A stretch of DNA of 42,217 nucleotides from the IMG/VR virus record IMGVR_UViG_2703718801_000022; one strand, written 5' to 3'. This document shows positions 7,104-7,416 of this stretch, piece after piece. Both the position numbers and the translations under genes were made by a program. Positions within the stretch are counted from its first letter, which is position 1, and each line of letters begins with the position of its first letter. Source of the DNA: a virus. Taxonomy: Duplodnaviria; Heunggongvirae; Uroviricota; Caudoviricetes. The notes under the pieces were generated by a model. The model had not been told where the DNA came from and did no database searches. It worked only from the letters and a program-made list of their open reading frames with translations.

Positions 7104-7262
7104 TTTGCAATTACCAAGTGGAGTGCTTATATTTACCTTTGCGGTAAATTTACATAGCACTCCTCTTGTGCCATAGTAATCGGGCACTGGCAAAATCCAG
7201 TGCCGGGATTGGCGTCCCGAGTTACTAAGTGGCGCATACCACGCCAGACGTGGTTTTTTTAT
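7104..7262 (+). ncRNA. Candidate small RNA upstream of BRO-type antirepressor gene
   Basis: -35 TTGCAA (7105-7110), 17-bp spacer, -10 TATATT (7128-7133); operator 7133-7147; no ATG in about 120 nt; hairpin GGCACTGG/CCAGTGCC; terminator CCACGCCAGACGTGG + T7 at 7238-7260. Confidence 0.35.
7133..7147. promoter_or_regulatory. Operator-like palindrome TTACC-TTTGC-GGTAA
   Basis: Overlaps -10 of the candidate sRNA promoter. Confidence 0.45.
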
Positions 7263-7416
7263 GCGTTAAGCACAGCTATATCCGAATTATGGTGGGCTGG
7301 GCAGGGGTCCGAAAGGACGCCGGTACCACTTAGGCCGGTACGCCAACCTTGTCCAGTTCACCACCAGTAATTGGCGTTGCGGTGGTGATTAAAATCACTA
7401 AGTGGAGATAACCACC

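Follow-up and report, generated by a model that had tools for sequence, protein, structure and literature searches.

An IsrK small RNA and C4 antisense RNA cassette upstream of an antirepressor gene in an Escherichia coli Uetakevirus prophage

How is the antirepressor gene ant of an Escherichia coli prophage controlled by the DNA immediately in front of it? The question is raised by positions 7104–7416 of a 42,217-nucleotide viral sequence (IMG/VR record IMGVR_UViG_2703718801_000022; Caudoviricetes), hereafter the window, where a reading made from the sequence alone had proposed an operator-gated small RNA (sRNA) and a repeated element that could switch the ribosome-binding site (RBS) of ant. 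The window is an E. coli Uetakevirus (epsilon15/phiV10-like) prophage, and its nearest phage record is HEMP4, with 97–99% identity. The flagged stretch is an IsrK sRNA plus C4 antisense RNA cassette, a well-known type from P1 and Salmonella Gifsy-1. We think it likely that it works as an RNA immunity cassette of the P1 immI type placed before a Bro-N ant gene, in which C4 masks the ant RBS directly and the IsrK-like RNA competes.

The cassette is detectable with standard Rfam models, and the stretch holds no categorically new biology. It is an uncharacterised example of the P1 immI c4/Gifsy-1 IsrK–STnc1160 system, common in E. coli prophages: the 341-nt cassette region has matches in 257 phage records, Stx phages among them, and 440 of 5,426 complete E. 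coli genomes contain sequences at least 80% similar to the cassette. The P1-type IsrK/C4 cassette is shown here to be a portable module, plugged into the repressor circuit of epsilon15/phiV10-like podoviruses. For annotation, the 330-bp "intergenic" stretch 5' of such ant genes deserves labelling as two RNA genes.

IsrK- and C4-family RNAs in the ant leader

Rfam covariance models were scanned over the whole window at their curated gathering scores, with an extra permissive scan for models below threshold. The features of the cassette and its target gene, all on the plus strand, are the following.

7184–7260, plus strand: IsrK-like sRNA of 77 nt (isrK, RF01394; 67.2 bits against a gathering score of 50; model positions 1–77)
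7171–7223, plus strand: c4-a1b1 match (RF03163; 44.3 bits, just below the gathering score of 46.7; permissive scan)
7208–7215, plus strand: a1 (ATTGGCGT), complementary to a', in the loop of IsrK hairpin 2
7224–7232, plus strand: b1 (ACTAAGTGG), complementary to the b' loop, in the IsrK linker
7238–7260, plus strand: intrinsic terminator with a 6-bp stem (7238–7254), a 5-nt loop and seven T ending at 7260, from a signal scan independent of Rfam
7285–7368, plus strand: C4 antisense RNA (RF01695; 66.0 bits against a gathering score of 45; full length, model positions 1–87)
7326–7333, plus strand: b' (CCACTTAG), unpaired loop of C4 hairpin 2
7340–7346, plus strand: a' (ACGCCAA), single-stranded 3' bulge of C4
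7370–7377, plus strand: a2 (ATTGGCGT), target of a', beginning about 2–3 nt past the end of the C4 match
7396–7407, plus strand: b2 and Shine-Dalgarno (SD) sequence (CACTAAGTGGAG), containing ACTAAGTGG at 7397–7405 and GGAG at 7404–7407
7417–8127, plus strand: ant, a 236-aa antirepressor with Bro-N and C-terminal phrog_450 domains, from domain matches

By its family match, the sRNA postulated by the sequence-only reading is the IsrK-like RNA. As that reading had stated, the transcribed region lacks an ATG (read directly over 7140–7260), contains a strong hairpin (GGCACTGG/CCAGTGCC at 7183–7204) and ends at an intrinsic terminator at 7238–7260. The 77-nt RNA folds at −29.7 kcal/mol into hairpin 1 (7184–7203) and hairpin 2 (7204–7219), whose loop holds a1; a single-stranded linker with b1 and then the terminator follow.

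For comparison, we used 13 phage loci (E. coli, Enterobacter, Klebsiella, Hafnia, Yersinia and Salmonella) together with P1 and Gifsy-1. Rfam finds C4 in all of these loci, P1 and Gifsy-1 included, and isrK at or above its gathering score in all except Salmonella phage SW-37 and P1. The terminator lies at the same place in 14 of 14 loci and in P1. SW-37 was tried as a stand-in for Gifsy-1 and rejected, its leader departing from the published numbering and its isrK match being sub-threshold; Gifsy-1 itself was used.

The C4-like RNA alone folds at −43.6 kcal/mol (z-score −5.0), a value reached by none of 200 shuffled sequences. Its structure combines two hairpins with a long, acceptor-like closing stem that bears a 3' ACC tail, and is kept over 12 loci, with compensatory changes on both sides at 11 of 25 pairs. 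In this fold, no base of CCACUUAGG, in the hairpin 2 loop, is paired, and UACGCCAA lies unpaired in the 3' bulge. The 5' junction AUUAU/GGUGGG and the 3' end ...CACC-ACC are conserved, as in the annotated c4 RNA of P1, and hint at the excision by RNase P to a stable, trans-acting RNA of about 77 nt that is expected of C4 RNAs; by homology to the ends of the P1 RNA, mature C4 would span about 7291–7365 (about 75 nt). What had been taken for an upstream leader element is indeed complementary to the SD element, but it is the loop of C4 hairpin 2 and not plain leader.

The recognition elements form two sets. The three b elements (b1, b' and b2) are exact complements over 8–9 nt, and the a elements likewise (TTGGCGT, ACGCCAA and TTGGCGT for a1, a' and a2). 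All eight positions of b' (7326–7333) pair with b2 (7398–7405), and all seven of a' (7340–7346) with a2 (7371–7377). The sequence-only reading had described only one recognition pair and overlooked the a set. The copy of ACTAAGTGG at 7224–7232 had been placed correctly and the two leader elements do exist, but they had been located one base low: CCACTTAG lies at 7326–7333 and not 7325–7332, and CACTAAGTGGAG at 7396–7407 and not 7395–7406. The window contains three copies of ACTAAGTGG where 0.20 are expected, and none of 100 shuffles gave at least three. The third exact copy (32105–32113, minus strand) has no context tying it to the cassette and is taken as chance.

The element b2 contains the SD sequence, in line with the earlier description: GGAG (7404–7407) stands 9 nt before the ATG at 7417. 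In the predicted fold, b2 and the SD are displayed in the loop of a local hairpin in which 7381–7386 pair with 7411–7416. The predicted costs of opening the elements are 2.6 kcal/mol for b', 1.75 for a', 2.4 for a1, 2.45 for b1, 3.8 for b2 and 6.0 for a2, with duplex energies of −12.0 kcal/mol for b and −9.7 kcal/mol for a. From these values, C4 is predicted to pair somewhat more favorably with the IsrK-like RNA than with the ant leader.

The strongest support for these elements comes from the relatives. The 15 loci carry 10 distinct b sequences, and the three copies change together, as the following examples illustrate.

Window: b1 ACTAAGTGG, b' CCACTTAG, b2 ACTAAGTGG
phiV10: b1 ACTAAAAGG, b' CCTTTTAG, b2 ACTAAAAGG
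Tyrion: b1 ACTACAGAGG, b' CCTTTGTAG, b2 ACTACAAAGG
Sal3: b1 GTTATCGG, b' CCGATAAC, b2 GTTATCGGAGG
P1: b1 GTTAGTG, b' CACTAAC, b2 GTTAGTGAGG

Pairing of each b' with its own b1 gives a mean of −11.1 kcal/mol, against −5.4 when partners are permuted; with its own b2 the mean is −11.35 kcal/mol, against −5.96. In neither case does any of 20,000 permutations reach the value of the true partners. The a set has three alleles, TTGGCGT, TTGGTCT and TTTGACA (the last in P1), matched at all three positions in every locus, and b2 overlaps the SD or the start codon throughout the relatives. The three-way co-variation of b, the matched a alleles and the position of b2 over the SD or start codon argue strongly for functional complementarities that serve as a specificity code. 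The 10 b sequences and three a alleles would define specificity types, akin to those of c4 in P1/P7 heteroimmunity. The repeated complementary elements first noticed in this stretch are thus confirmed, far beyond chance.

Overexpression of the Ant homologue of phage ZX5 lowers lysogeny (PMC9782041); that study makes no mention of an RNA layer of control.

Predicted tandem promoters and an operator-like palindrome

Two promoter-like sequences and a palindrome precede the IsrK-like RNA.

7105–7133, plus strand: distal sigma-70-like promoter, TTGCAA (7105–7110), 17 nt, TATATT (7128–7133), matching 9 of 12 consensus positions
7149–7177, plus strand: proximal promoter, TTTACA (7149–7154), 17 nt, CATAGT (7172–7177), with TG one base upstream, from consensus and conservation
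7131–7149, no strand assigned: operator-like palindrome ATTTACC-N5-GGTAAAT, over the distal −10/+1 and abutting the proximal −35

The distal promoter is the one described from the sequence alone, and it is present at that place. It had been held to drive an sRNA of about 120 nt, and with a predicted start at about 7140 it would yield a 121-nt form; the promoter that is conserved in all related loci, however, is the proximal one, which had been overlooked and which predicts 77 nt from a start at about 7184. The distal promoter is kept in the E. coli Uetakevirus relatives and in Tyrion and is less well conserved in the Klebsiella relatives and in TL-2011b, within a set of eight Uetakevirus-like loci. 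In TL-2011b (positions 367–1455 of that locus), about 0.9 kb is inserted between the homologue of an 85-aa open reading frame (ORF) that precedes the cassette and the isrK promoters; the insertion removes the distal promoter region, and the operator and proximal promoter are retained.

CATAGT of the proximal promoter ends 6 nt before 7184, placing the predicted +1 at about 7184, which is position 1 of the Rfam isrK model. In agreement with this, the promoter −10 ends 6–7 nt upstream of isrK model position 1 in 14 of 14 loci. The promoters that precede isrK are unrelated in sequence between phage groups and share the same geometry, which is found also in P1 (P1c4) and Gifsy-1. Among the Uetakevirus-like loci, the proximal promoter is unchanged in seven of eight.

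By consensus, the two promoters are spaced 44 nt apart, with the palindrome between and over them and its centre at about −44 relative to the proximal start. Its position at −51 is the same in all eight Uetakevirus-like loci, where its arms are invariant and its spacer variable, and it was not found at the non-Uetakevirus loci. Allowing at most one mismatch, TTACC-N5-GGTAA occurs 15 times in the window, against 0.65 expected; the 15-nt sites begin at 2950, 3195, 6753, 7133, 8200, 26729, 29871, 29889, 33601, 33663, 35609, 35946, 35994, 36706 and 36768. By visual comparison with the ORF list, most exact copies appear to be intergenic. Pairs of sites flank a gene for a 194-aa helix-turn-helix (HTH) protein without a protease domain (36064–36648), a candidate for the repressor, and its divergent Cro-like neighbour. 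Given the fixed position, the invariant arms, the genome-wide copies clustered at the HTH gene and the restriction to Uetakevirus-like loci, the palindrome is best read as an operator of the prophage repressor. Gating by an operator that overlaps the promoter, as proposed from the sequence alone, would apply to the distal promoter, where the site at 7131–7149 covers the −10/+1; the proximal promoter is only abutted at its −35. As an observation apart, the 15 palindromes resemble a P1-style multi-operator regulon of a prophage repressor.

An outer inverted repeat, CAAGTGGAGTGCT/AGCACTCCTCTTG, lies at 7115–7127 and 7156–7168. It is perfect in phiV10 and is represented by ATGGGTT/AACCCAT in one Klebsiella phage; it was not found in Tyrion or in the second Klebsiella phage, and it lacks a U run after it. 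It could act as a hairpin in RNA or terminate transcription of the upstream ORF. A partial copy of b in the spacer of the distal promoter (AATTACCAAGTGGAG, 7109–7123) was considered as a further element and rejected as lacking co-variation: phiV10 retains CAAGTGGAG in this spacer although its b set is ACTAAAAGG/CCTTTTAG, so that the spacer does not follow the b set.

A P1-type reading and its alternatives

The full pattern of a1–b1, b'–a' and a2–b2 in the window is the defining layout of the P1 c4 system. In the curated P1 record, the order is Oc4 (Op51), P2c4 (P51a), P1c4 (P51b), a1, b1, the 77-nt c4 RNA, a2, b2 and icd. The window has the same order of elements, with nearly equal spacings.

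Distal to proximal promoter: 40 nt in P1, 44 nt in the window
a1 to b1: 14 nt in P1, 15 nt in the window
End of the antisense RNA to a2: 4 nt in P1 (annotated c4), 3 nt in the window (Rfam C4 match)
a2 to b2: 29 nt in P1, 26 nt in the window
b2 to start codon: 18 nt in P1, 20 nt in the window

By position, the distal promoter of the window is the counterpart of P2c4 (P51a) and the proximal one that of P1c4 (P51b), and in both a repressor operator, putative in the window, lies on the distal of the two tandem promoters. In both, a1 in a hairpin loop and b1 in a linker are followed by a terminator-like hairpin; the tRNA-like RNA, 75–77 nt long and in the window predicted, presents b' in its hairpin 2 loop and a' in its 3' bulge; and b2 lies over the SD about 18–20 nt upstream of the start codon, with an antirepressor downstream. 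The P1 region upstream of c4 itself matches the isrK model (35 bits, E = 8.5e-6), its terminator-like U-run hairpin included. Since the P1c4 +1 is the base aligned with isrK model position 1 and a terminator-like U-run hairpin follows b1 of P1, IsrK is, on this alignment, the a1b1 module of the immI operon.

The two systems also differ. Unlike P1, the window has no icd, so b2 would mask the ant RBS directly, and its Ant is of the Bro-N type and not P1 Ant1/2. Its putative operator is TTACC-N5-GGTAA, would belong to another repressor and covers the distal −10/+1, whereas that of P1 covers the distal −35. The upstream module of the window is a full isrK (67 bits), compared with 35 bits in P1. 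Finally, the window represents an integrating podovirus and P1 a plasmid prophage.

The c4 RNA of P1 is cut from its transcript and acts in trans as an immunity factor (PMC8198154, PMC12197685). By analogy, we propose that the two tandem promoters of the window flank an operator of the prophage repressor, and that transcripts from the proximal promoter (start about 7184) would mostly stop at 7238–7260, yielding the 77-nt IsrK-like sRNA, whose hairpin loop displays a1 and whose single-stranded linker displays b1. Read-through transcripts would contain the tRNA-like C4 (about 7291–7365), to be excised as in P1, whose loop b' and bulge a' would pair with b2/SD and a2. This pairing would block ant translation in cis and in trans and confer immunity to phages that share the specificity type. 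Because it carries exact copies of both targets, the IsrK-like RNA would compete for C4 and titrate it as an anti-antisense or decoy RNA, relieving the block when abundant. We infer the processing, the action in trans, the direction of control in vivo and the decoy role from P1 and Gifsy-1, and likewise infer which promoter the repressor would control; the family assignments, structures, complementarities, three-way co-variation, colinearity with P1 and absence of a coupling upstream ORF (uORF) are established for the window itself. An sRNA that carries a copy of the target and ends at a terminator, and terminator read-through that feeds the antirepressor gene, had both been suggested from the sequence alone, and both fit the characterised relatives.

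Some observations weigh against this reading. The distal promoter is a consensus match only, and such matches number three in the region where shuffling predicts 3.1. The operator touches the proximal −35, which bears on C4 synthesis in the lysogen. The element a2 is partly buried in local leader structure, with its opening cost of 6.0 kcal/mol. In Gifsy-1, the one homologue studied in detail, regulation is ascribed to a uORF (orf45) and alternative cis structures and not to direct masking of the SD by a processed C4, and co-expression of the C4-like region (STnc1160) failed to counteract IsrK (PMC4825925).

The best-surviving alternative, which we consider unlikely, is control of termination as in phages P4 and N15, where C4 would act on nascent a1/b1 or a2/b2 to cause termination at the isrK terminator or by Rho. 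The CI RNA of P4 (seqA-seqB-seqC) and the CA RNA of N15 are processed leader RNAs that silence lytic or anti-immunity genes through premature transcription termination. By this description, they share with the window a small leader RNA directed against repeated complementary sites up- and downstream. In P1, blocked icd translation reduces downstream ant transcription by polarity, a precedent that counts for this alternative. In the window, b1 ends 5 nt before the terminator stem, and the terminator lies between b1 and C4 in every locus, P1 included. The possibility has also been raised for STnc1160, and SeqA of P4 has been named a structural homologue of IsrK (PMC4825925). Unlike P4 and N15, however, the window has a downstream target that contains the SD, and no terminator follows its antisense RNA: the signal scan found no intrinsic terminator between C4 and ant, nor any plus-strand terminator-like site between 7260 and 7596 of the type expected downstream in P4 and N15. 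In the relatives, b2 lies over the SD or start codon, which suggests that control acts primarily on translation. An extra effect on termination or Rho polarity may accompany RBS masking.

Less probable still is a purely cis-acting leader switch, in which CCACTTAG and the SD element pair within one mRNA with no separate antisense RNA and the sRNA competes for the upstream element. This was the sequence-only view of how the RBS might be hidden. The complementarity on which it relied is real, both elements lie on one read-through transcript, and cis action is also expected under the C4 model. The element CCACTTAG, however, sits in the loop of a very stable and conserved tRNA-like structure of the C4 family, and the P1 record annotates its homologue as a 77-nt RNA in its own right. 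Moreover, the predicted ground state of 7184–7440 consists of the C4 fold and the local SD hairpin, with b' and b2 not paired to each other, so that a contact between them in cis would be loop–loop, that is, a pseudoknot.

The comparison with Gifsy-1 both supports the elements and separates the window from that system. In Gifsy-1, IsrK terminates at its own terminator, and a fraction of transcripts continues into orf45-anrP; this long RNA is not translated until IsrK activates it in trans (Hershko-Shalev et al. 2016, PMC4825925). Both elements have the two RNA families in the same order before an antirepressor-like gene; the sRNA terminator is partly read through in Gifsy-1, a1:a' is identical (UUGGCGU/ACGCCAA), and b2 lies over the SD. 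The published Gifsy-1 mutations (G28A and G31A, compensated by C162U and C159U; PMC4825925, Table 1D) map exactly to a1 (UUG28GCG31U) and a' (AC159GCC162AA), and correspond to the pairs G7211–C7345 and G7214–C7342 of the window. Because these compensatory mutations fall in a1 and a', the a1:a' pairing is experimentally validated in a homologue. On this mapping, "helix b-I" of Gifsy-1 is the a1b1:a'b' pairing, which joins two literatures by placing the Gifsy-1 IsrK mutations on a1 and a' of the P1 model.

In other respects, the window departs from Gifsy-1. It has no orf45, hence no translational coupling, no antQ upstream and no isrJ downstream; its b specificity sequence is another one, and the putative repressor operator and a small antirepressor gene, probably under LexA control, are specific to its Uetakevirus context. 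The only ATG-initiated ORF in the place of orf45 has 14 codons and stops 69 nt before ant, so that uORF coupling cannot apply here. An ORF that ends at the antirepressor start is found in one of the 15 loci, the Gifsy-1-like locus, which makes the coupling proposed for Gifsy-1 an exception among the relatives. Folding reproduces structure A as the minimum-energy fold of Gifsy-1 nt 1–180; in the window, the separately folded modules (−80.4 kcal/mol) are favored over an A-like state (−76.1), which is 4.3 kcal/mol less stable. With no orf45 and with separately folded modules favored, the window behaves on paper like P1 and not like Gifsy-1. The strict Gifsy-1 mechanism, in which an mRNA locked in cis by a1/b1:a'/b' is opened by the sRNA for translation of orf45 and coupled synthesis of the antirepressor, is therefore very improbable for the window, despite the matching isrK family, the mutationally validated a1:a' helix and the reproduced structure A.

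A last form of antisense control was rejected. In P22, sar is an opposite-strand transcript across the ant RBS. The immI region of P22 (mnt-arc-ant) with sar shares with the window a small RNA that limits antirepressor translation; the elements of the window, unlike sar, all lie on one strand and would act in antisense through short loop complementarity, and the signal scan found no minus-strand promoter-like site in 6500–8400.

Transcript ends and neighbouring genes

Under the P1-type reading, two further predicted structures may bear on how well the decoy sites are exposed.

7230–7268, plus strand: outer helix enclosing the terminator and its U run, 7230–7237 with 7261–7268 (predicted fold)

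The outer helix requires read-through RNA and lies outside the 77-nt Rfam isrK model. It was assessed by folding each locus singly; the MAFFT alignment is out of structural register near the terminator. It is predicted in 12 of the 12 loci folded, P1 included, with sequences that differ by locus in a compensatory manner (UGGCGCAU/AUGCGUUA in the window, GCGACAA/UUGUCGC in Sal3 and GCGGACA/UGUCCGU in P1). Since the 3' terminal 3 nt of b1 fall within the helix, the predicted cost of opening b1 rises from 2.45 to 4.15 kcal/mol.

The second structure (7140–7236 in the window) involves the 5' extension of transcripts that would start about 40–44 nt upstream, as from P51a of P1; this extension is predicted to pair with the b1 linker or with the 3' strand of hairpin 2. 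Such pairing, with 8–15 predicted pairs, appears in each of the 11 loci that were folded, as well as in separate folds of P1 and Gifsy-1. The mean gain is −13.1 kcal/mol for cognate and −8.4 kcal/mol for non-cognate combinations, and eight of 20,000 permutations reach the cognate value. Taken by itself, the window exceeds the gain of a shuffled upstream region by only about 1 standard deviation. With low confidence, we suggest that the outer helix and the 5'-extension pairing may be new structural details.

These structures raise the speculative and rather doubtful idea that the RNA ends decide the exposure of the decoy sites, in a three-state switch between terminated, read-through and distal-promoter transcripts. 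Terminated transcripts from the proximal promoter would expose a1 and b1 and be the active anti-antisense form, the outer helix of read-through RNA would bury the 3' end of b1, and operator-controlled distal transcripts would carry the 5' extension that masks the b1 linker. A repressor bound at about −44 could also activate the proximal promoter, as lambda CI does at PRM. If this were true, promoter choice and termination efficiency, besides RNA abundance, would set antirepressor output.

Upstream of the cassette lies a small gene with a putative control element of its own.

6805–6824, plus strand: LexA box (TACTGTATATTTGTACAGTT), 20 nt upstream of the 85-aa ORF
6844–7101, plus strand: 85-aa ORF, a stand-alone Ant C-terminal domain (phrog_450) with 43% identity to the Ant C-terminus

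The LexA box is a strong one, agreeing with the consensus at 17 of 20 positions counted by eye, and is conserved in five relatives, phiV10, phiv142-3, ZX5 and Tyrion among them. The 85-aa ORF is probably, by its domain and its LexA box, a Gifsy-type small antirepressor under SOS control, directed against a repressor without a protease domain. The signal scan found no terminator between this ORF and the cassette (7101–7238).

A second antirepressor, of 312 aa and with a P22_AR_N domain, is encoded on the minus strand within 9301–11031, and shares its last ~83 residues almost unchanged with the Bro-N Ant. Ahead of it lies a 62-aa ORF that has no Pfam match and a position reminiscent of P22 arc. 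The module faces a divergent gene for a 153-aa Arc-domain protein and resembles a P22 immI-like module (9301–11031). Apparently, three proteins with one common C-terminal domain are subject to three control modules: the LexA box, the C4/IsrK cassette and an Arc-family neighbour.

Downstream of ant, in the region 8200–8974, an exact copy of the operator (8200–8214) precedes a 59-aa ORF (8275–8454) and a 190-aa ORF. The latter matches the YafO toxin with 26.1 bits against a Pfam cut-off of 25 (E = 9e-6), and the two ORFs may represent a repressor-controlled toxin–antitoxin-like pair. The prophage also carries a tRNA gene on the plus strand, at 27066–27139 (Rfam tRNA, 63.8 bits).

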